Shown: piece after piece, positions 32,068-42,235 of the stretch | How positions within the stretch are numbered: position 1 is the stretch's first letter | Layout: each line of letters opens with the position of its first letter | Assembly: GCA_041645165.1 (NCBI GenBank) | Contig: JBAZQN010000003.1 | Location: 28,198-92,197 of the forward strand | Source of the DNA: Patescibacteria group bacterium | GTDB lineage: Bacteria > Patescibacteriota > Patescibacteriia > 2-02-FULL-49-11 | Reading direction: 5' to 3' | Length of the DNA: 64,000 nucleotides | Notes under the pieces: generated by a model | What the model was told of the DNA's origin: nothing | The model's input: the letters and a program-made list of their open reading frames with translations, nothing else | The model's database searches: none | Translations under genes and position numbers: made by a program

Positions 32068-32577
32068 TTATTGGCTGATCTCGGCTTTTAACTTCCTTAG
32101 ATCAACGAATTTCGCGAGGTTAAGGAGTTCTTTACCGACCCTTCCGCGCGTAGACATCACAATGACCCGCTTTCCCCTTTGTTTAAGCCGCTCCAGAGCG
32201 GGCGCAAAATCGCTGTCGCCGGAAACGAGAACGGCGGTATCGTATTTCTCCGCGAGCTCCACCATTTCAAAGGCGAGTTCAATGTCGAGACTGCCCTTAT
32301 GTTTATTGCCTTCGTTAGTTTTAATCTCTTTGAGCGCTTTGGTACGCAGAATATAACCGTTGATATCGAGCATGTCAAGGAATTTGCGTTCGGCGAGATT
32401 GTTTTCATCGACGGCGGCGTAAGCGAAACACTTCATGCCCTCGCCGCATTCGCGCTTAAGGTACCGCATCAACTTGGCATAAGCAACCTTCCAGCCAAGC
32501 GTGCGCTGCGAATAGAAGACATTAGAAACGTCGATGAAAACGTAGACTTTGCCGTGGACGAATGAGGAAATCATAAT
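32068..32577 (-). CDS. NYN-domain (LabA-like PIN) protein
   Basis: KVYVFIDVSNVFY…DIELAFEMVELAEKYDTAVLVSGDSDFAPALERLKQRGKRVIV: NYN acidic residues and layout. Confidence 0.7.
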   Translation of the reverse strand: MMISSFVHGKVYVFIDVSNVFYSQRTLGWKVAYAKLMRYLKRECGEGMKCFAYAAVDENNLAERKFLDMLDINGYILRTKALKEIKTNEGNKHKGSLDIELAFEMVELAEKYDTAVLVSGDSDFAPALERLKQRGKRVIVMSTRGRVGKELLNLAKFVDLRKLKAEISQ

Positions 32578-32774
32578 GGTAGCGTAGCAAAAAAGCGTGT
32601 TTTTCACAATATTACCCGTTCATACGGGTTAACAACGACGGCGACACGTTCCACTGCCGCCCGTCGCCAGTTCTGACCGTGACACTCCGGCGGTTTACCC
32701 CGCAGTGCGGGGTGAAGGAGTAATTGTCATGTGGTATACTACAAGTAGAATCAGTTTGTTTCTTTACTTAATTT

Positions 32775-33743
32775 ATGACCAAACTCATTCGGCTGAAAGT
32801 TTCCCGCATCAAATACACCGGCGATTCCATCGGCGATGACATCCGCATTGAAGTCGAGAGCCTGAACAAGTTCGTGGGGTTGAATATGCGGCTGAAGCGG
32901 GGAAGCGATAGAGCGCTGAATGTCGAAATAGGGCAATTCTTTGGCGACGGTGTGTCGTTCGCCCTGCCAGTAACAATCAGAATCATCGAACGAGATCTAG
33001 TATTCAACGACGTAGGAAGCGTGCAAAAAACGATCAAGGTCAATTTGAGCGACCCTTCGTCTCAACGTAACATCTATACGATAGAAGTGCGGGAACGGCG
33101 CGGTTATCTGACCCGGAAAAAGGCGGTCTTTGAAGTAACTTTGGAAGCAGGCGTGTCGGATACGATTTTGTACGTAGCAGACGAGAGCGGAGACGGCTGG
33201 GTGGTCACCGTGCCAGAACACGGTACCGAGAACATAAGCCTTCCATACCACTTAAAAATCTCGTTAGAAAAATACGATACTAAGCGCCAGTACTTTAAAA
33301 TCATGGAAGGGATCATACAGGGCACGAAGGCTTCAGTACAAATCGAATCAAACGGCACATCACACCTCCGTACTGAAAATCCGCATACCGGATCGGCGCA
33401 TCTCACATATTCGCTTTCTCGAGGAACGTTAAAGATGAACCGTAACGTCTACAAAGTCCTTAACTTCCCCCAAGACCCTGAACCATGGAAAAATGGTCTT
33501 TATGATATCGAAATACCTGACGCGCCGCATGAGCCCGGAGAAGCATATTTAGACCGTGCCAGATTGGCAAAAGTCTGGTTCCGCGTTGGTCACGGCGGAG
33601 AGAGGTACCTCCATACCGGCAGCGTGACACTTGGGTGCATCACGTTGACGGAAGTAGAACGCTGGGATTATATGTGTAAAGTACTCATGAAAGCGCGCAA
33701 AGGCGATGGGGAGAGCATCGGCGTGTTAGAGATAACCGACTGA
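32775..33743 (+). CDS. hypothetical protein with C-terminal YkuD/L,D-transpeptidase-like H…GC motif
   Basis: 322 aa, beta-rich; C-terminus VGHGGERYLHTGSVTLGCITL resembles LDT catalytic His…(S/T)xGC(I/V) signature. Confidence 0.5.
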   Translation: MTKLIRLKVSRIKYTGDSIGDDIRIEVESLNKFVGLNMRLKRGSDRALNVEIGQFFGDGVSFALPVTIRIIERDLVFNDVGSVQKTIKVNLSDPSSQRNIYTIEVRERRGYLTRKKAVFEVTLEAGVSDTILYVADESGDGWVVTVPEHGTENISLPYHLKISLEKYDTKRQYFKIMEGIIQGTKASVQIESNGTSHLRTENPHTGSAHLTYSLSRGTLKMNRNVYKVLNFPQDPEPWKNGLYDIEIPDAPHEPGEAYLDRARLAKVWFRVGHGGERYLHTGSVTLGCITLTEVERWDYMCKVLMKARKGDGESIGVLEITD

Positions 33744-33749
33744 GACTCT

Positions 33750-34727
33750 ATGCACCGAAAATATGCTCTCATCGCGTGTATAAGTCTCATACTCGTGACT
33801 GGCTTGGCCGCGCTGGTTCTCTACCGCTTCCGGGTTTCAGCCCCCTTGCGGAGCGTGCGTGAATTTGGCCCATTAACATTAGGAAGCAGTATGCCGTTAG
33901 CAGGACCGGGAGATTGGACGTTCGCACCGTACAAAAAGATACCTGAGTCAGATTTTTACGTACTCGTCGTCCAATATGATAATTGGTGCATCCAAGCTTC
34001 ATGCAGTCTTGATGGCGCTTTGGTACAAACTATGGGCGGATGGCTGCAAGGAGAAACAACGCGTAATTTCCCAGACTTACCGGAGATCATTGGTTTTGAC
34101 CGGGAAGAAAATAGGAAAGTGAAATCCATCGTCGTCATCGGCGACTCGAAGGGGAGGATTGCCGGCATCTATCCGAACAAGGGCATGGAAGACCTTATCC
34201 CCGTCTTGAAACTCCATCCTGATATTGCCGACTTCAGCCTCTTAAACGGCGTGGACGCATTCGGTCCGCTCAAAGTCGGAGAACCTTCACCGGTACAGCC
34301 CGGCAATCCGACCGGCTACCAGGCGGGAGCGCCAACGTCGTTTCCTTACATCCAAATACCAGCAGGAAAAAAATTTTATGTATTCTCATTTCAACAAGAA
34401 CTAACGGGAACAGGCTATTGCGCGTTCTGGAATTGCATCACGAGCAACTATGGCTACCGTAACTATACCGCGAACTATGTTGAAGATTTGGGCGGGTGGT
34501 GGTCAAGCGACGGATTACCTGAAACGGCACGGAAATTCGGCCTTGACCCTAACCGCGTGGCAAAAGGAGAAGCCTCGCTCGTGGTCGTGACCGACCCCTC
34601 CGGCGCCATCGTCGCCATTCATCCCAACAAAACCATACGGGACATCCTCTCCATCCTGCGGCAACTTCCCGAACTCGCTGACGTGGAACGGTTATTCGGG
34701 GACCGCGCCGACGACGCTCCCATTTGA
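33750..34727 (+). CDS. membrane-anchored protein with two tandem thioredoxin/redoxin-like domains
   Basis: N-terminal TM helix; internal duplication; each half has hydrophobic strand + WC..C-like motif (YVLVVQYDNWCIQASC / YVFSFQQ…YCAFWNC) and peroxiredoxin-like C-terminal strand (KSIVVIGDSKGRIAGIYPN / ASLVVVTDPSGAIVAIHPN). Confidence 0.45.
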   Translation: MHRKYALIACISLILVTGLAALVLYRFRVSAPLRSVREFGPLTLGSSMPLAGPGDWTFAPYKKIPESDFYVLVVQYDNWCIQASCSLDGALVQTMGGWLQGETTRNFPDLPEIIGFDREENRKVKSIVVIGDSKGRIAGIYPNKGMEDLIPVLKLHPDIADFSLLNGVDAFGPLKVGEPSPVQPGNPTGYQAGAPTSFPYIQIPAGKKFYVFSFQQELTGTGYCAFWNCITSNYGYRNYTANYVEDLGGWWSSDGLPETARKFGLDPNRVAKGEASLVVVTDPSGAIVAIHPNKTIRDILSILRQLPELADVERLFGDRADDAPI

Positions 34728-34732
34728 AAATG

Positions 34733-35032
34733 CTATGCCTTGATCCTCGTTAAAAACGACGGCGAGACGTTCCATTGGCGCCCATCGCCAGTCTTGATTG
34801 TTACGCTCCGGCGGTTGAGTTTCATGACGATGCCGACGATCTGCTTCCCCTCATGTGTAAAGTACACTCTGTCCATGAGATTGAATTTCGCAAGACCCTT
34901 CAAGTCACGGGCTTTGTGATAGAGCTTTAATCGTTCAACGACCATTCGGTTAAGCAGCCTCAAATCTTCTTCACTCAAACGATTGAGGAAATGCTCGAAT
35001 TCGGTGACAGGTTGGAGATGTTGATCCGGCAT
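34733..35032 (-). CDS. hypothetical small protein
   Basis: 99-aa ORF 3 bp downstream of pRiA4b-like gene; C-terminal beta-rich segment (VYFTHEGKQIVGIVMKLNRRSVTIKTGDGRQWNV). Confidence 0.4.
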   Translation of the reverse strand: MPDQHLQPVTEFEHFLNRLSEEDLRLLNRMVVERLKLYHKARDLKGLAKFNLMDRVYFTHEGKQIVGIVMKLNRRSVTIKTGDGRQWNVSPSFLTRIKA

Positions 35033-35035
35033 ACA

Positions 35036-35638
35036 TTAATCAAGCGCAGGATATTGTTCGGGCGCGACGCCGCGCTGGTCTATCACGCGCGGAAAATCGC
35101 GTGCTGTTTCTTGTTTATCAACGTGACGCGTTCCTTTCAACTTAACATCAAACCTGTGGCCGTCGCCAAAGTCAAACATGAATTCCAGCCTTGGGTGCCG
35201 GGAGTAATCGAGGTCGCAGATGCGGATTTCGTCTGTCTTGAACGTCGGATGCGGATCGTCTTCCCAACCCGGCGCAAAAAACGCAATGGATGAACCGGTG
35301 AACAATGGATCTGGTCTTTTACGCGTGTCGAGAAATTCAAAACCGTGCATGTGATCGTTATCCCAGCACATCGACTCAATTATCGTCTCGGCAAGATCGC
35401 AAAAAGTCTGCGTACCCAAAATTGCGATATCCCGCCATACAGGCCTTTTCAGGAGATACGTTGCACGGAACGCATACACCGCATCTTTGGGATTCTTGTC
35501 CGTAAAATTTTTCTCAAACTCCAGCTTATACTCCTTGTACTTCTTCAGCACTTCCTGTAAATACTCAACATGCCGCTCTTCTGTTATGGCACGATTGATA
35601 CTCTCGTGAAAATTACCTTCTTGGATTTTTGGGTGCAT
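35036..35638 (-). CDS. plasmid pRiA4b ORF-3-like family protein
   Basis: MCWDNDHMHGFEF and FMFDFGDGHRFDV blocks match the W.D.HLH.F / DFGD motifs of PF07929 as I recall them. Confidence 0.5.
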   Translation of the reverse strand: MHPKIQEGNFHESINRAITEERHVEYLQEVLKKYKEYKLEFEKNFTDKNPKDAVYAFRATYLLKRPVWRDIAILGTQTFCDLAETIIESMCWDNDHMHGFEFLDTRKRPDPLFTGSSIAFFAPGWEDDPHPTFKTDEIRICDLDYSRHPRLEFMFDFGDGHRFDVKLKGTRHVDKQETARDFPRVIDQRGVAPEQYPALD

Positions 35639-35758
35639 ATATAAGGCAGCTAAGCCATAGCGATACGCATACGGTCCATGGCGGCATTCCCACAACGCCC
35701 CCCTCGCTTTCAACGCCGACGGAATTTGTGCCAGCAGAAAGCTCTCGCGCCGCTTTAT

Positions 35759-38443
35759 TTATTTTTTAATCCAAGTCCGAACAACTTCTTGAAAATTGCG
35801 AGGTTTCTGTTGTTGGGTTTCCCATTCTTCCTGTCTGACGTAAAGCATTTTGTAAACGACGTTCTTTTGATTCGCGTTTACATCCACGCACCATTGAGCA
35901 AGCCGTTTAATTTTCTCGACATCATCGAGATCCTCTCGCCCTTTGGTTTCAACGACATAGTATTCTTCAGGGCGTACTTTTACAATATAATCCGGGTAGT
36001 AATCTGAAATGCTTCCGTCCGCGTTTTTATAATCAATTTTGAAATGCACCGCAAAATAGTTTTTGGCGTAAGAAATTATATCCTCGCAATTTTCAAGAAA
36101 GCTCGCGAATTCCAACTCAAAATGGCTATCACCAATAATTTTATTAAAAATGCTTCGCTTTGGCACAATATACTCCTGATCTTTGACCACGAACGGGCGA
36201 CTTTTGCCGATTTTTATATAGTCCCGAATTTCCGTCTCGCCTTTATCCAAAACAGTGAGCGTGTTGATTTCTTTTTTGAATGTTTCAAAGATCGTCCGCG
36301 AAGCCTCAATTTCGGATAGATTGCGAAGCGAATTGAGGTTATCAAGATCAATACGCGTATTAAATAAATGTCCTTGGATAAACTCCTTAACCTTGCCGTA
36401 AAGTATGTCATAGCCGGAAACAAGCCGGAGTTCTTTCATAATAACCTGCGTAAAATATCCGATTACGCTTTGATAGTTAGGCACAAAATTGCTATCAAGC
36501 TCCGTTTTGTGGGTAATATCTCCGCTCGCTATATCACGAAAGACAATCTCTCGTTTTTCCTCCTCCGAAAACTCTTTGATAGGGATTTTTTTATGACCGA
36601 ATTTCGCGACATCAAGTCCGGACAAATTTTTATATTCGCGATAAATGCGGGGAGTAAGAACCGGAATTTGAATATCCATTTTCTCAATGTCCTTTTTCAT
36701 ATTCTCGCGATCAACTTCAACCACGAGCGGACTTTTTGGGCCGGTGCCTTCGCCCATCTTGCGGTGTTCAAATTCAACTCCCTCGTTTTTGATAGATTCC
36801 ACAAAATCCATAAATGCGTCAGTGCCTACAACACTGACAAGCTCCGGCAAGTCCGGATCGCGATACATTCGGCGCAAACCTCGTCCAAGCGTCTGCTCGG
36901 GCAGAATGTTGCTTTGCGCAACATAAGCCCGTAGGCCGACAATAGTCGTTACATTACGAACATCCCAGCCCTCTTTGAGCATAAGCACCGAAACAATCGC
37001 TTTGTACGGACTGTCGAGCTGATCAATCTCATTAGCCGCCTTACGCAGTATTTTTAGTTCTTCCTCTTTTTTGCCAGTTACACTTTCCGAAATTTCTCCG
37101 TTGTTTTTCGTGTGAATCACTAACACCGCGTCTTTTAGCTCCGCATAGGTGTTTTCAAGATATTCCGCCACCTCATCGCAATTTTTTGTATCATCTGTCA
37201 TCAAAAATAAGACTGCTTTTTTGCCGAGCTTAGTGTGCACGTCGTACACTTTTTTCCATTCAAGAAAACCGAGATGGATATAATCTTTATATTTCTCGGT
37301 ATACTTCGCGCTTTTGTGTTCCTGTAATTTTGCGCGGCTGGCTGAATCCGGCAAAACAGGGTGCTTAACGACATTTTGATGGATTGCTTCAACAAGCGGG
37401 TAGTCGCTTATCGTTTGCACAAAAATTGCGCCGCTGTTGTGCTTCGGCGTAGCCGTTACATCAACCTGCAAAGCAAGCTGACCACCTTTCATCTTGAGCC
37501 GATTGTGAATATCCTCAATTGCCTTGAACCACGCCAAGCGCGGATCGTGGATATGGTGGGCTTCATCGTTTAGCACAATAAGTTCGTCCACATTGCGAAC
37601 AATATCCCCAAGATCAAGTTTTGATTCGTTCGTCGCGCCAACCGGCTGCTTTCCAAGAAAATAATCGGTTGTATCGGGATCACCGAAGCTCGCCGACTCT
37701 ATCGCGCCCTCGTAGACACGGTGAATGTTCGTAAGAAAGATATTGCCGGTTTTTCGCACAGTGCCAATTTCATCCTGAATATGAAGCGTCATTTGAAAAT
37801 CATCGCGCCAGTTCCGTCCTTGATAGCCGTTGTCGGGAAGCACGGGATCCCCAAAAAATATTTTGAGTCCGTCAAAATCGGCGCGAATACGATCAAGAAC
37901 GATAATATTGGGCGTAATGACCAGAAAATTGCGGGCCAACCGCGAATCGTCCTCATAAAGTTTGTGATAGTAGCACCATGCCAAAATCAAACTCAATACT
38001 TTTGTTTTTCCACTACCAGTTGCCATCTTTACTACATATCGCGTCCATGTCTCGCTAAACATACTTGTTGAAATCGCCCGCGAGCTATCAAATTGCATAA
38101 GTGCGTATGGATCTCTCGCCTTGGCGATTTCATACAGCCAAATAATCGTTTCCACCGCCTCTCGTTGGGCAAAGTAGTATTGAAAAAGAAATATCTCGCC
38201 GTCTGATGTTTCTGTCGGATGATCAGTTAAAAACCACCACTTGAGCAATGTTTTGCTTGTTTCGCTAGCGCCGTCATAACCGGACAATCGCCAATCCCGA
38301 ACTTTTTTGCGAAGTTCGGCAACGAGTGGAGGGAGTAGTTTTTCATATCCCTTTTCACGCAAATTCTCATCAGCCGGAAACCACCGGATCGCCGGATCAA
38401 GAATTTCATATGGTGATTGTGGAAACTTTTGATGAAGTGCCAT
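35759..38443 (-). CDS. res: Type III restriction endonuclease Res subunit (SF2 helicase + PD-(D/E)xK nuclease)
   Basis: MATGSGKTKV Walker A, LNDEAHHI DEAH box, C-terminal DYYPDYIV…VVETKGRE nuclease motif; 894 aa. Confidence 0.85.
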   Translation of the reverse strand: MALHQKFPQSPYEILDPAIRWFPADENLREKGYEKLLPPLVAELRKKVRDWRLSGYDGASETSKTLLKWWFLTDHPTETSDGEIFLFQYYFAQREAVETIIWLYEIAKARDPYALMQFDSSRAISTSMFSETWTRYVVKMATGSGKTKVLSLILAWCYYHKLYEDDSRLARNFLVITPNIIVLDRIRADFDGLKIFFGDPVLPDNGYQGRNWRDDFQMTLHIQDEIGTVRKTGNIFLTNIHRVYEGAIESASFGDPDTTDYFLGKQPVGATNESKLDLGDIVRNVDELIVLNDEAHHIHDPRLAWFKAIEDIHNRLKMKGGQLALQVDVTATPKHNSGAIFVQTISDYPLVEAIHQNVVKHPVLPDSASRAKLQEHKSAKYTEKYKDYIHLGFLEWKKVYDVHTKLGKKAVLFLMTDDTKNCDEVAEYLENTYAELKDAVLVIHTKNNGEISESVTGKKEEELKILRKAANEIDQLDSPYKAIVSVLMLKEGWDVRNVTTIVGLRAYVAQSNILPEQTLGRGLRRMYRDPDLPELVSVVGTDAFMDFVESIKNEGVEFEHRKMGEGTGPKSPLVVEVDRENMKKDIEKMDIQIPVLTPRIYREYKNLSGLDVAKFGHKKIPIKEFSEEEKREIVFRDIASGDITHKTELDSNFVPNYQSVIGYFTQVIMKELRLVSGYDILYGKVKEFIQGHLFNTRIDLDNLNSLRNLSEIEASRTIFETFKKEINTLTVLDKGETEIRDYIKIGKSRPFVVKDQEYIVPKRSIFNKIIGDSHFELEFASFLENCEDIISYAKNYFAVHFKIDYKNADGSISDYYPDYIVKVRPEEYYVVETKGREDLDDVEKIKRLAQWCVDVNANQKNVVYKMLYVRQEEWETQQQKPRNFQEVVRTWIKK

Positions 38444-38627
38444 AAAACTATTTAAAGTTTCAACTAATTCCAGCCCTTATTTTAAGCCAAATTTTAATCA
38501 TTTTTTAACTAATTCGTCTCTCTTTTAACTAACTTCCAAACCGCAATTCCGATCTTTTCTTCTAATCCCTTAGCTAGGATAATGACCCGCCCAGAAACGG
38601 CCTTAAAATAGAGCCTAAATCGGCCTA

Positions 38628-40082
38628 TCATGTTTTATTATCAACCCCCCTTGAAAATAAACCCTTGGGCATCTCTTGCCCAGGCTTTCTATAGTAACGA
38701 TCCTTTTTTGCCTTACCAATTTTTTCTAGCAGTCCTTTTTCAACCCAGGCCTTCAAAATCCTAGACATTCTTAAGACATCGTGTACGCCGGTTGTTTCAC
38801 GGGCCTGTTTATTCGTAATGCGATAGTTTGCATCTAAATATTTACTGACGGTATCCCAATATTCAACTTTTTGCAGATTAAGAAGTATAAGCAACACCGA
38901 GTTCGGTTTTATTGTCGGCGGAAAGTATAACGGTTCGTATAGATTTTTCTCTTTCATCACTTTATACATACGATCAACGCCTTCTCCAATATCCAGGTTT
39001 GGAGCAACTTGAAAACGATTCAATGTTCTTAATATTAAAGGGTTTCTGGCGAATCTTTCTGACCGTATATTTTCAGTAGTGATGTGTCCCGGATAAGTCC
39101 CCGGACTTTCCACCTCAACACGATCGTCAAAGAATCTAACCTGTATATCGTTCTGGACAAAATAATTTCTATGAATAACTGCGTTCGTAATAGCTTCTTG
39201 AAATGCCCACTCGGGAATCATAAAAGTTGGTCTAAATGAGGCGCCGCTTAGTTTTGGTCGAGAACTTTTCGCCACACTCTTAAAATAGTCAACAGCTTTT
39301 TCTATCTGATGCAAGAGAGATCCTTCAAGAGTAAATGGCCGGTCTACAAAATTTGGCTCACCTGTATAATTTGGTTTGGTCCCATAATAGTGAGAAATTT
39401 TAATTCCGCATTTATTTTTCAACATAACCGATGGATTTTTACCGAACAATAAGACTCCGGCTGTGGTGAGCTCGTGCTTTCCAGCTTGATCAATCGAAAG
39501 TCCGTTATCTTTCAAAAACTGCCAGTCATTCAAGCTTTCACTTGCGGTATCCTTTTTATATTGCTTCAGTAAATTTTCATCCACGTCGTCGAGCGTAAAA
39601 ATGTCTGATTTCTCACTTTCAAATTTTATAGCGCCCTTCTCATACTTAAGACGCATTATTTCCGTAGAGCCGATTTTTACATTCTGCCTGCCTTTCCTTA
39701 CGAAAGTATCGCCGCGCTTGAGGGAATGCACATCATTGCTCTTTTTTACACTCACTACAAACAACTTGTCCGGCTGCCTATTCACATTGGTTATATCGAG
39801 TTCAAATTTTCCCCAAAGATTAAGCGGTGGTTCAATTTCTTTTTCAATGAGCTTCAAAAACTCTGAAATATTATCCAGGTTTTCACTGATTCCAAGTAGT
39901 CGTTTGTGGCCTTCTGCTTTTGACGGATCTTCAAGCCCAACGACAATGTAACCACCTTCCGTATTTGCAAAGGAAACAACCGTCTCTAAAAGTTTCGCCG
40001 GCTCAATAGCGGCTCGCTTACACTCAAAAGTCTGCCACTCCTGGGTATCTAGAAAAATCTTTATTATTTCTTGGTCATTCAT
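38628..40082 (-). CDS. AlbA_2 (Schlafen-like) DNA-binding + HATPase_c_4-type ATPase protein with C-terminal wHTH
   Basis: N-terminal divergent-AAA/AlbA_2 fold (…VSFANTEGGYIVVGLED…), central region often mis-annotated as RecG C-terminal domain, C-terminal HTH; start overlaps mod stop (ATGA). Confidence 0.65.
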   Translation of the reverse strand: MNDQEIIKIFLDTQEWQTFECKRAAIEPAKLLETVVSFANTEGGYIVVGLEDPSKAEGHKRLLGISENLDNISEFLKLIEKEIEPPLNLWGKFELDITNVNRQPDKLFVVSVKKSNDVHSLKRGDTFVRKGRQNVKIGSTEIMRLKYEKGAIKFESEKSDIFTLDDVDENLLKQYKKDTASESLNDWQFLKDNGLSIDQAGKHELTTAGVLLFGKNPSVMLKNKCGIKISHYYGTKPNYTGEPNFVDRPFTLEGSLLHQIEKAVDYFKSVAKSSRPKLSGASFRPTFMIPEWAFQEAITNAVIHRNYFVQNDIQVRFFDDRVEVESPGTYPGHITTENIRSERFARNPLILRTLNRFQVAPNLDIGEGVDRMYKVMKEKNLYEPLYFPPTIKPNSVLLILLNLQKVEYWDTVSKYLDANYRITNKQARETTGVHDVLRMSRILKAWVEKGLLEKIGKAKKDRYYRKPGQEMPKGLFSRGVDNKT

Positions 40083-42235
40083 ATATTCACCTCAATTATC
40101 TTCATCGTATCATTGCCGAAAATATCCACGACCTTGATTGCAAGCTTGTGCTTGCCCTTTCCAAGCTCGCGGGAAATAGATGTAAGTTCAAGCTCGCGCT
40201 TCTTCTTCGTACGGAAATCCTGCCACTCGTTTTCAAACACATAATCGCCAGTCCATACTTCTTCATATTCCAAGAGGTTCACCTGCGTTGGATTCGTTGA
40301 GCCGTCCAGTTTTATCTGCGTGGCTTCTTTTTTGGGTACGCGAACAACTTCTTTTTTGCTCTCAAAATTAAAATCAACCGCCCAATAATCAATCCAGTCC
40401 GTCCATTTTTTCGTGAGCGTCTCTCGCTCCACAATACCATCTTTGTCTTTGGATATTTTGATGATTTGGCCGTTTTCCACCACCAGCTTTTTACCCCCGG
40501 CTTTAAGATTTTCCTCAACTTCTTTGATTGAATCCTGATTATAAAATACTGAAAAATCAGTCAGCTCAACCGCTACCATTCCTTTTTTAACAATAGGTTT
40601 TACTTCAATATAGCTCACATCATGGAATACTACTTGATTCTTCTCAATCGCGCGCTTGTCAAACACATCGCGGGGAATGTATTTGAGCGCGAGATCAACG
40701 CCTTTGCCTTTGGCTTCTTCCTGAATGTTGGGAAATAATCCCATTTCAAACTCAAACGCCAAAACATCAACTTTGGTGATTTGCTTTTCAACTGCTTCTG
40801 TTATCACCGCGTCAACGAACAGCCGCGAGACCGGCATATTGATTGGCCCAATGGCAACGAGGCGAGAATTTTTCTTACCATGAAATGTTTTAAAGCCGTC
40901 AAAACTTTCGGCTTTGTATGCCGAAATAATAAGTGCAATAAAATCTTTTTCTTTTTGAGCGATTTGCTTTTGTTTCTCATCTTCGCGCAGGTTCGGATTG
41001 ATACCAACAAACATCTGGCGTTCGTATTTTCCGAGATTTAAAATTTCAAAGGCGCGAAAATCTTTTCCCGCTTTTGCCAGTTCACGCTGAACACCAATCA
41101 TTCGCTTGCGAGTTGTATGAATTGAGAATTTGCCTAAATCAGAACCAATCCACTTACGCCCGAGCTTTTCCGCAACAGCGAGCGTAGTACCCGAACCAGC
41201 AAAAAAATCCGCAACGAGATCGCCTTCGTTAGACGATGCTTTAACAATTCTCTCTAATAAATCTTCATGTTTTTGAGTAGGATAACCAACTTTTTTGTCC
41301 CCTCTTAACGCTGGCAATTCGATAAAATTATCGGCCTTGTTTTCCGTAACTTCAAAATAAACAATTTTGCCATTTTCGTCTCTTAGTCTTTGGGCTTTCC
41401 CCGTAACTGGATCCCAGACATGCTTGCTTGCGGTTCTAAATCCTTCTTCATTTTTAATTTTTTCGTAAACAATATTCCAGATATGCTCACCCTTGTTTTT
41501 TGCGTAATAAAATACCGTCTCGGTATTTTGATGAAATTTTTTCGACAAAGCTTTTAAACCTACTGCTGTGTAATGTATGACAATTTCATTTTGAAAATTA
41601 TTTTCATTGAATATCTCATCCAGTAATATTTTAATATACGGGCTTACTCTCCAATCGCAATGCACATAAATACTTCCATCTTCAGCAAGTAAACCGTGCA
41701 TAAGCGACAATCTCTCATATATCATCGCGATAAAACTATCCGCGCCCTTGCCCCATGTGTCACGATACGCTAATTCTTCCAGCACGCCGGGCTTTTTAGT
41801 AAATTCTTCTTCCCCGACTTCAATGTTCATTGAAAAATCCGCACCAACATCAAACGGCGGATCAATGTAAATCAATTTAATTCCACCTTGTTCTTGGATT
41901 TCTTGCCGAAGCGGACCATTTTTCAAACTGGAAAGGATTAATTTGTTGTCGCCCCAAATGAGCTTATTCGTCCATCCTTTGAGCTGGCGGCCGCGAGTGT
42001 CCACGTCAAACAGGGCCTGCTGGAGCTTGACCTCTTTTTCGCTTCTCGGCTCATCAACCTGCTCAATAACTTGAAATGGCAAAACGACATTCGTAACCTC
42101 ACTCGTTTTTCCATTCCAGACAAGCTCCACCTCCTGCTTATCCGCAAAAAGCAAAAAACGATATTTATCCGGCAACGGCTTATCGGCTTCCAAGTATTTG
42201 ATAATATCCCGTTTTTCGTTATCTGCTATTTTCAT
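40079..42235 (-). CDS. mod: Type III R-M DNA methyltransferase Mod subunit
   Basis: IYIDPPFDVGADF (DPPF motif IV) and DFFAGSGTTLAVAEKLGRKWIGSD (motif I FxGxG) in N6/N4-MTase beta-class order; 718 aa. Confidence 0.85.
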   Translation of the reverse strand: MKIADNEKRDIIKYLEADKPLPDKYRFLLFADKQEVELVWNGKTSEVTNVVLPFQVIEQVDEPRSEKEVKLQQALFDVDTRGRQLKGWTNKLIWGDNKLILSSLKNGPLRQEIQEQGGIKLIYIDPPFDVGADFSMNIEVGEEEFTKKPGVLEELAYRDTWGKGADSFIAMIYERLSLMHGLLAEDGSIYVHCDWRVSPYIKILLDEIFNENNFQNEIVIHYTAVGLKALSKKFHQNTETVFYYAKNKGEHIWNIVYEKIKNEEGFRTASKHVWDPVTGKAQRLRDENGKIVYFEVTENKADNFIELPALRGDKKVGYPTQKHEDLLERIVKASSNEGDLVADFFAGSGTTLAVAEKLGRKWIGSDLGKFSIHTTRKRMIGVQRELAKAGKDFRAFEILNLGKYERQMFVGINPNLREDEKQKQIAQKEKDFIALIISAYKAESFDGFKTFHGKKNSRLVAIGPINMPVSRLFVDAVITEAVEKQITKVDVLAFEFEMGLFPNIQEEAKGKGVDLALKYIPRDVFDKRAIEKNQVVFHDVSYIEVKPIVKKGMVAVELTDFSVFYNQDSIKEVEENLKAGGKKLVVENGQIIKISKDKDGIVERETLTKKWTDWIDYWAVDFNFESKKEVVRVPKKEATQIKLDGSTNPTQVNLLEYEEVWTGDYVFENEWQDFRTKKKRELELTSISRELGKGKHKLAIKVVDIFGNDTMKIIEVNI

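Follow-up and report, generated by a model that had tools for sequence, protein, structure and literature searches.

Cell wall effectors with an L,D-transpeptidase (LDT)-like fold that are accompanied by an exported immunity protein are known as a kind, and the motif published for LDTs reads HXX14-17-(S/T)HGCh (PMC9638812). In toxins associated with extracellular contractile injection systems (eCIS), the published architecture joins an N-terminal DUF4157 domain to a C-terminal toxin domain (PMC8213781). Here we describe two adjacent genes, designated A and B, in a stretch of 64,000 nt (the window) from Patescibacteria group bacterium GCA_041645165.1 (contig JBAZQN010000003.1, positions 28,198-92,197), and we read them, with moderate confidence, as an antibacterial effector-immunity pair directed at peptidoglycan in which B is an immunity protein with a thioredoxin fold. 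An initial annotation, made from the letters of the sequence alone, had suggested a cell wall enzyme with a periplasmic partner or immunity protein, an idea that received independent support from eCIS- and Hcp-linked homologs. The two plus-strand open reading frames (ORFs) were found exactly as it had given them (322 and 325 aa); the spacer, given there as 7 bp, counts 6 nt (33744-33749). Both are real genes rather than chance ORFs, since they belong to conserved families with 382 (A) and 70 (B) homologue matches at E<=1e-3. The sequence of A agrees at 100% with that of a "hypothetical protein" from a Patescibacteria-group metagenome-assembled genome (MAG), and the sequence of B with that of its neighbour (WC659_01805, WC659_01810). 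The genes and the parts of their products are located in the window as follows:

32775..33743 (+): gene A, encoding a 322-aa putative peptidoglycan L,D-peptidase effector without signal peptide
32775..33179 (+): N-terminal beta-sandwich of A (residues ~1-135), eight strands, C2-domain-like
33186..33464 (+): small beta-barrel of A (residues ~138-230), opening the conserved module 'DGWL..v....lP.YLKV....R(D/E)YF.ILEG'
33477..33740 (+): compact catalytic domain of A (residues ~235-322), YkuD/Tlde1-like
33612..33644 (+): catalytic core of A, H280-T-G-S-V-T285-L-G287-C288-I-T290; family motif H-x-G-x-x-[ST]-x-G-C-h-T
33750..34727 (+): gene B, encoding the putative immunity protein (325 aa, membrane-anchored, with tandem thioredoxin folds)
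33753..33833 (+): N-terminal transmembrane or signal-anchor helix of B (residues 2-28), a helix in the AlphaFold2 model
33858..34244 (+): repeat 1 of B (residues ~37-165), thioredoxin-like, with C80-IQAS-C85 at 33987-34004
34251..34715 (+): repeat 2 of B (residues ~168-322), thioredoxin-like, with C224-AFWN-C229 at 34419-34436

Architecture and catalytic core of protein A

The AlphaFold2 model of A, built from 60 homologs (pLDDT 93.5, pTM 0.81), is all-beta to about residue 230 and continues into a small alpha/beta domain with the fold of YkuD catalytic domains. The best structural neighbours were the housekeeping L,D-carboxypeptidases Csd6 and Pgp2, and Tlde1a, a type VI secretion system (T6SS) effector, scored 6.6. 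In all 60 homologs a conserved beta-strand (M-x-K-x-I-x-L-K...) is kept from residue 1, and A therefore has no signal peptide, as the initial annotation had held. The C2-like sandwich bears a conserved acidic/Gly cluster (Y14, G16, S18, G20 and D22 as well as E72, D74, N78 and D79) and is missing from stand-alone and eCIS-fused relatives; it is an N-terminal addition specific to the family of the candidate phyla radiation (CPR) type, and we propose that it acts in targeting or export. The barrel that follows is probably an SH3b-like wall-binding domain.

The C-terminal block was the most conserved part of A in the 60-sequence alignment. Across 144 diverse representatives of the wider superfamily, G282, S/T285 and G287 were present in all 144, H280 and C288 in 143 each, H252 in 141 and T290 in 139. 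Another histidine, H273, which lies in a 'FRIGHxG' context at a canonical-like spacing to C288, was rejected as the catalytic residue (kept in 88 of the 144, versus 143 for H280). Because H280 and the other core residues are near-invariant and H273 is not, the core was defined as H-x-G-x-x-[S/T]-x-G-C-h-T. The segment LHTGSVTLGCITL, with which A had been said to end, is present as a motif but occupies residues 279-291, 31 residues before the C-terminus. Its likeness to the His...GC signature of YkuD and Tlde1 was borne out in that the same segment is near-invariant and attracts weak Tlde1_dom matches. A does not conform to the published LDT motif, since its invariant His stands 8 residues before the Cys and a His adjoining G-C is absent.

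Scans of A against Pfam, NCBIfam and PADLOC returned no match. For Pfam YkuD (PF03734), A itself gave nothing at E<=1 and one homolog reached E 0.076 (14 bits against a threshold of 23.4). For Tlde1_dom (PF10908), weak matches were obtained in 8 of 25 family members (best E 0.019, ~14-15 bits against a threshold of 30.1), covering profile positions ~75-113 of 120 on the His...GC segment, and none for the window protein. PDB sequence searches with profiles of full-length A and of its C-terminus produced spurious matches only (UPF0100, zinc finger). As all profile matches remained sub-threshold, A is placed outside both curated families, while being YkuD/Tlde1-like in fold and active-site logic.

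Protein B, its coupling to A and reuse of the catalytic module

The model of B (pLDDT 89) consists of the N-terminal helix and two alpha/beta repeats, in agreement with the membrane anchor, the internal duplication and the redoxin-like halves that had been suggested earlier; the halves align at 30% identity (BLASTP, E=3e-14). Structural neighbours include the anchored reductases of the ResA, TlpA, DsbE and Etrx types. The WC-x4-C and YC-x4-C motifs noted before are present as W79-C80-x4-C85 and Y223-C224-x4-C229, and each Cys-x4-Cys falls after the first beta-strand and before the first helix, the position of CxxC in thioredoxins. Nearly all repeats in about 57 partner proteins keep this Cx4C. 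B has neither CxxC nor the peroxiredoxin PxxxT/SxxC, its cysteine pairs (CIQASC, CAFWNC) lacking a P-x3-T/S context. It matched no Pfam or NCBIfam model, the curated thioredoxin, redoxin and AhpC-TSA models included, and nothing in PADLOC; a Glyoxal_oxid_N match was dismissed as chance (17 bits versus 37.5), and a PDB sequence profile search with B found nothing relevant. One single-repeat partner of the B type (L046:1247-1714) contains no cysteine at all, and the Cx4C is therefore not strictly required for the role of that variant.

For a survey of the pair, one genome per species was scanned, which gave 80 loci that were then analyzed with hidden Markov models and by ORF. Nearly all belong to Patescibacteria MAGs, the rest being at least six contigs of "Deltaproteobacteria bacterium TL4" and one Burkholderiales MAG. 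A B-type gene lies directly downstream of A on the same strand, overlapping it or a few nucleotides away, in 57 of 82 loci, and the partner starts between -14 and +12 nt from the stop codon of A in 55 of 58. The initial annotation had named folds unrelated to YkuD and thioredoxin, and a pair not conserved together, as outcomes that would speak against it; neither was seen. Partners of the B type carry one repeat (~170 aa, the commonest form), two as in the window, or three (512 aa). Those of CPR bacteria have an N-terminal hydrophobic anchor and all six from TL4 a lipoprotein-type signal (e.g. FLSIGC), which places the thioredoxin domains outside the cytoplasm. Where a B-type gene is missing but the contig extends further, the gene behind A encodes an anchored protein all the same, though of a different family: a ~247-aa type ('P2', with a weak, sub-threshold PdaC/DUF4163 match at E 3.5e-5; absent from the window), a ~216-aa type and others. 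Such non-thioredoxin proteins stand in for B in about 20% of loci and are scattered over the neighbour-joining tree of A, and repeated non-homologous replacement of the partner is therefore indicated.

Several loci depart from the simple pair. Two A genes flank a three-repeat partner of 512 aa in one of them (L073: 2-760, 768-2303 and 3305-3913), and the Peribacteria contig CAZWES010000001.1 (L028/L040) carries two pairs in divergent orientation at a distance of a few kb. The TL4 genome holds at least six copies of the pair (L009, L010, L014, L015, L016 and L027), whose partners are one-repeat lipoproteins with 8 cysteines, those of a Cys-rich C-terminal tail (...CPRGDQTVCCGCGQDL) included; these copies are flanked by IS4 transposases, PemK, PIN/PhD and DUF4156 lipoproteins.

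When 754 neighbouring ORFs were clustered, only A and its partners recurred strongly, and no conserved secretion genes emerged. Linkage to T6SS (Hcp/VgrG/PAAR) was absent from the window and from the 80 family loci; the flanks of the TL4 copies held transposases and toxin-antitoxin genes and likewise no T6SS. The distribution of the pair is patchy, several genomes are multi-copy, and contexts vary, including IS200-like Y1 transposases (11 loci), IS4 transposases, PemK, PIN/PhD and AbiEii. Five loci share the gene order MurJ-Y1-A-B-LepA (L034, L039, L045, L049 and L052), with a Y1 transposase-like gene recognized by Pfam Y1_Tnp at E 3.4e-5. As MurJ stands directly next to LepA in L067, the arrangement suggests that the pair was inserted as a cassette travelling with the Y1 transposase-like gene.

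The last 145 residues of A were also searched as a profile against 1.84 billion cluster representatives, which matched 496 proteins, 339 of them at E<1e-10. The conserved unit of ~185 aa begins at 'DGWL...lP.YLKV...R(D/E)YF.ILEG', about residue 138 of A, and occurs in the ~320-aa family, as stand-alone proteins of ~195-205 aa and in proteins of 387-803 aa, at the extreme C-terminus in nearly all matches listed. The exception is P0260 (567 aa), in which it is N-terminal to Amidase_3. As in polymorphic toxins, the same C-terminal domain stands behind different N-terminal parts: eCIS_core/DUF4157 in 8 of 10 long homologs scanned, HepT, Peptidase_C70 and, in the family of A, the C2-like sandwich; OmpA and DUF5675 were also found on long homologs. 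Unusual fusions are a 465-aa protein (P0280) that joins a HepT-like RNase to a full-length A-like protein and an 803-aa protein (P0318) composed of DUF5675, eCIS_core and the module. A canonical eCIS operon (Pvc16_N, AAA, CIS_tube, Phage_GPD, base_V, DUF4280 and gp25) contains the gene of one eCIS_core homolog. In another case TssD/Hcp is immediately followed by a stand-alone copy, behind which comes a truncated lipoprotein ORF. Downstream of a further, distant stand-alone copy are a lipoprotein of 156 aa recognized by the B profile (E=1e-15, with the Cx4C 'CLDLEC') and, behind it, a Peptidase_M23 gene and a small ORF. The gene after a 428-aa relative codes for a different small protein, again with a signal, and one relative adjoins GmrSD and AAA_15/21 genes. 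Wall-active domains fused to the module or neighbouring it thus comprise Amidase_3, OmpA and Peptidase_M23.

Proposed mode of action and alternative explanations

The effector-immunity reading rests on the combination of a wall-enzyme fold with an invariant Cys/His core, the missing signal peptide and the tightly coupled, exported and fast-changing partner, together with the multi-copy occurrence in mobile contexts and the reuse of the module behind toxin-trafficking domains. A, composed of the C2-like sandwich, the SH3b-like barrel and the YkuD/Tlde1-like cysteine peptidase domain, would be made without a signal peptide and leave the producer, possibly through a type IV secretion system (T4SS) or upon lysis. 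Outside, by analogy with Csd6, Pgp2 and Tlde1, Cys288 and His280 would attack an L,D bond of the peptide stems, acting as L,D-carboxypeptidase, in D-amino-acid exchange or as 3-3 endopeptidase, and competitor or host cells would be left with a weakened wall. B, presumably co-translated from the same message and anchored in the producer membrane with its two thioredoxin-fold domains on the outer face, would bind and neutralize any A that reaches the wall of the producer or a sibling; its Cx4C may form a structural disulfide or engage Cys288. Observed here are the folds, the invariant His/Cys core, the position of the partner outside the cytoplasm, the close coupling of the genes and the recurrence of the module in eCIS- and T6SS-linked proteins; the bond that is cut, toxicity, neutralization by B and the way out of CPR cells are inferred.

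Several observations weigh against this proposal. A has no recognizable export signal, the window encodes no secretion apparatus near the pair, and to our knowledge neither T6SS nor eCIS occurs in Patescibacteria. A scores below the Pfam thresholds of YkuD and Tlde1_dom. The partners of its family come from at least four unrelated families scattered over the tree, which is unusual for specific inhibitors, and an exported downstream gene is absent for some distant relatives (P0290, P0242), so that beyond the core family not every copy is paired. The relative encoded in the eCIS operon lacks an immunity gene next to it and could serve as a structural enzyme that pierces the wall instead of a cargo toxin.

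A housekeeping role in remodelling the producer's own wall is unlikely. A would then be an L,D-carboxypeptidase/transpeptidase-like enzyme of cell shape, recycling or autolysis, and B an anchored extracytoplasmic thiol-disulfide oxidoreductase that keeps exported cysteines, possibly Cys288, reduced. The housekeeping functions of Csd6 and Pgp2, the anchored reductases among the neighbours of B, the Cx4C at the thioredoxin active-site position and the vicinity of MurJ in several CPR loci fit such a role. It is hard to reconcile with the different compartments of A, which lacks a signal peptide, and the exported domains of B, with a patchy distribution reaching at least six copies in one genome, with the replacement of the partner by non-thioredoxin proteins and with the eCIS- and Hcp-linked reuse of the module; in several loci, moreover, the pair and the IS200-like gene look inserted between MurJ and LepA, which are adjacent elsewhere. 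The neighbourhoods of the pair could instead point to anti-phage defence or addiction, with A as a toxin of the cytoplasm that is released upon infection and acts on wall precursors or some other substrate, and B as membrane sensor or antitoxin. NYN, PRiA4_ORF3, type III restriction-modification and SLFN/AlbA_2 genes surround the pair in the window, AbiEii, PemK and PIN/PhD occur near it elsewhere, and relatives are found beside GmrSD and AAA_15/21 or fused to HepT. We nevertheless regard such a module as quite improbable, given that A and B matched nothing in PADLOC, that their soluble parts lie on opposite sides of the membrane, that the fold and the association with Amidase_3, OmpA and M23 indicate mature peptidoglycan as substrate and that homologs are linked to offensive machines.

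Prophage lysis, with A as endolysin and B as a holin- or spanin-like membrane partner, is very improbable. Endolysins without signal peptides, often with SH3b domains, do resemble A, and three phage proteins in BFVD were partial Foldseek matches, but no viral match there was full-length (TMq <= 0.30), neither the window nor the 80 loci show phage structural genes beside the pair, and B, a large, folded thioredoxin-repeat protein, is unlike holins and spanins. A variant of the effector-immunity reading to which we give a similarly small chance as to defence would make the A family cargo of a Patescibacteria T4SS, or of another CPR-specific route, that cuts host or competitor peptidoglycan and is neutralized by the partner through a mixed disulfide with Cys288. 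Besides the Cys pair at the thioredoxin active-site position, its hints come from 8 of the 80 loci, which encode, 1-5 genes away from the pair and in varying arrangements, a type IV coupling protein of the VirD4/TraG/TrwB kind or the N-terminal membrane domain of one:

L040:9896-12457, L046:4577-6355 and L068:2126-4207: coupling-protein loci with coordinates
L026, L031, L063, L075 and L077: further coupling-protein loci

The CPR coupling protein carries a ~400-aa N-terminal membrane domain without Pfam match. This proximity is a hint only, the 8 loci being phylogenetically non-independent and the figure a raw count, and no type IV coupling protein was found in the window. We know of no effector-immunity pair described with a redox-based immunity mechanism. 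The T4SSs of CPR bacteria have been reported to be essential for epibiotic growth (PMC12857230).

Setting in the window and comparison with described systems

A and B had been called the only plus-strand genes of their island, and this holds for ~21.2-48.0 kb (ORFs >=90 aa after overlap filtering): all other substantial ORFs at ~21-48 kb of the window are on the minus strand. The pair is flanked by NYN, translin and RecQ genes on one side and by PRiA4_ORF3, type III restriction-modification and SLFN/AlbA_2 genes on the other, and the remainder of the window consists of housekeeping genes. A candidate promoter was noted in the divergent intergenic region common to A and the NYN gene:

32724..32751 (+): sigma-70-like promoter candidate TTGTCA-16-TAGAAT, 10/12 consensus match, 24 nt upstream of the ATG of A

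The region holds 4 sigma-70-like sites versus 2.7 +/- 1.8 in shuffled sequences, i.e. no excess, and the candidate is a consensus match only. The NYN-domain gene (32068-32607, minus strand) is one of five that adjoin an A-partner pair directly, in different orientations (the others are at L022, L032, L059 and L083). Downstream, a 99-aa ORF without family match (34733-35032, minus strand) converges on B; the stop codons are 5 nt apart, which leaves no space for a terminator between them. Beyond it, 35036-42235 (minus strand) encodes PRiA4_ORF3, a type III restriction enzyme (ResIII and endonuclease), an SLFN/AlbA_2-HATPase_c_4 protein and an N6/N4 DNA methylase. The GC content is 0.40-0.42 at 36-42 kb versus ~0.50 elsewhere, and the stretch, which adjoins the pair, was probably acquired horizontally as a defence island.

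The window also carries an apparently complete shikimate and tryptophan pathway, with shikimate dehydrogenase at 198-1115 and the other ORFs within 198-27942 and 42259-63942. DAHP synthase, DHQ synthase, DHQase II, shikimate dehydrogenase, shikimate kinase and EPSP synthase are present, as are anthranilate synthase, TrpD, IGPS, PRAI, TrpA/B and prephenate dehydratase. This set is unexpected, as Patescibacteria genomes are usually described as lacking amino-acid biosynthesis (PMC12857230).

The family of A is found predominantly in Patescibacteria, and both A and B are currently annotated merely as "hypothetical". Patescibacteria account for much of bacterial diversity and have an epibiotic way of life. 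If the effector-immunity reading is true, this conserved and often multi-copy wall-targeting pair offers a handle on how they attack hosts or compete. The putative LDT-derived toxin domain, with ~500 cluster representatives, is deployed also by eCIS and T6SS-type systems, and the putative thioredoxin-fold immunity family raises the possibility of redox-based toxin neutralization. New are a putative toxin family with a shortened motif that lies below all curated models, its C2-like N-terminal domain and a putative Cx4C thioredoxin-fold immunity family; in limited searches of the literature, no report was found of toxin-immunity weapons in Patescibacteria, of the A family or of LDT-like toxins with an immunity protein of thioredoxin fold.

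Among described systems, Tlde1/Tldi1 of the Salmonella T6SS (PMC9638812) resembles the pair in that a compact cysteine enzyme of LDT fold without signal peptide is encoded beside an exported gene; B matches the immunity gene of Tlde1 effectors in position and predicted export, its protective role being putative. Tlde1 shares the [S/T]-x-G-C-h core, and the weak Tlde1_dom matches fall on the catalytic segment of the A family. The spacing from His to Cys is 8 in A, 10 in Tlde1a and 16-21 in canonical LDTs, and the A family has Ala or Leu where 'SHGC' has its His. Unlike Tlde1, A has two additional N-terminal beta domains, its host is a monoderm CPR bacterium and its window contains no T6SS; unlike in the Tlde1/Tldi1 pair as known, the partner is a thioredoxin-fold repeat protein. 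Csd6, Pgp2 and other YkuD-family enzymes are secreted housekeeping proteins with the motif HXX14-17-(S/T)HGCh, whereas A has no signal peptide, a shortened motif and no PF03734 match. With the eCIS-associated toxins (PMC8213781), one of them encoded in an eCIS operon, A shares its C-terminal module as their C-terminal domain, but where these carry DUF4157 the window protein has the C2-like sandwich, and eCIS genes are missing from its vicinity.

B shares an N-terminal anchor, an extracytoplasmic domain and a Cys pair at the active-site position with ResA, TlpA, DsbE/CcmG, Etrx and peroxiredoxins of the BCP type. A Cys-x4-Cys is also present in BCP/PrxQ peroxiredoxins. Unlike these proteins, B lacks both CxxC and the peroxiredoxin P-x3-T/S-x2-C context, and its domain is repeated one to three times and always coupled to a toxin-like gene. 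The alternative partner P2 shows a weak, sub-threshold likeness to DUF4163-DUF3298 proteins of the RsiV/PdaC type, and RsiV binds lysozyme through this fold, a precedent for the binding of wall hydrolases. The combination of features in A and B fits the logic that defines periplasm-acting effector-immunity pairs such as Tlde1/Tldi1.

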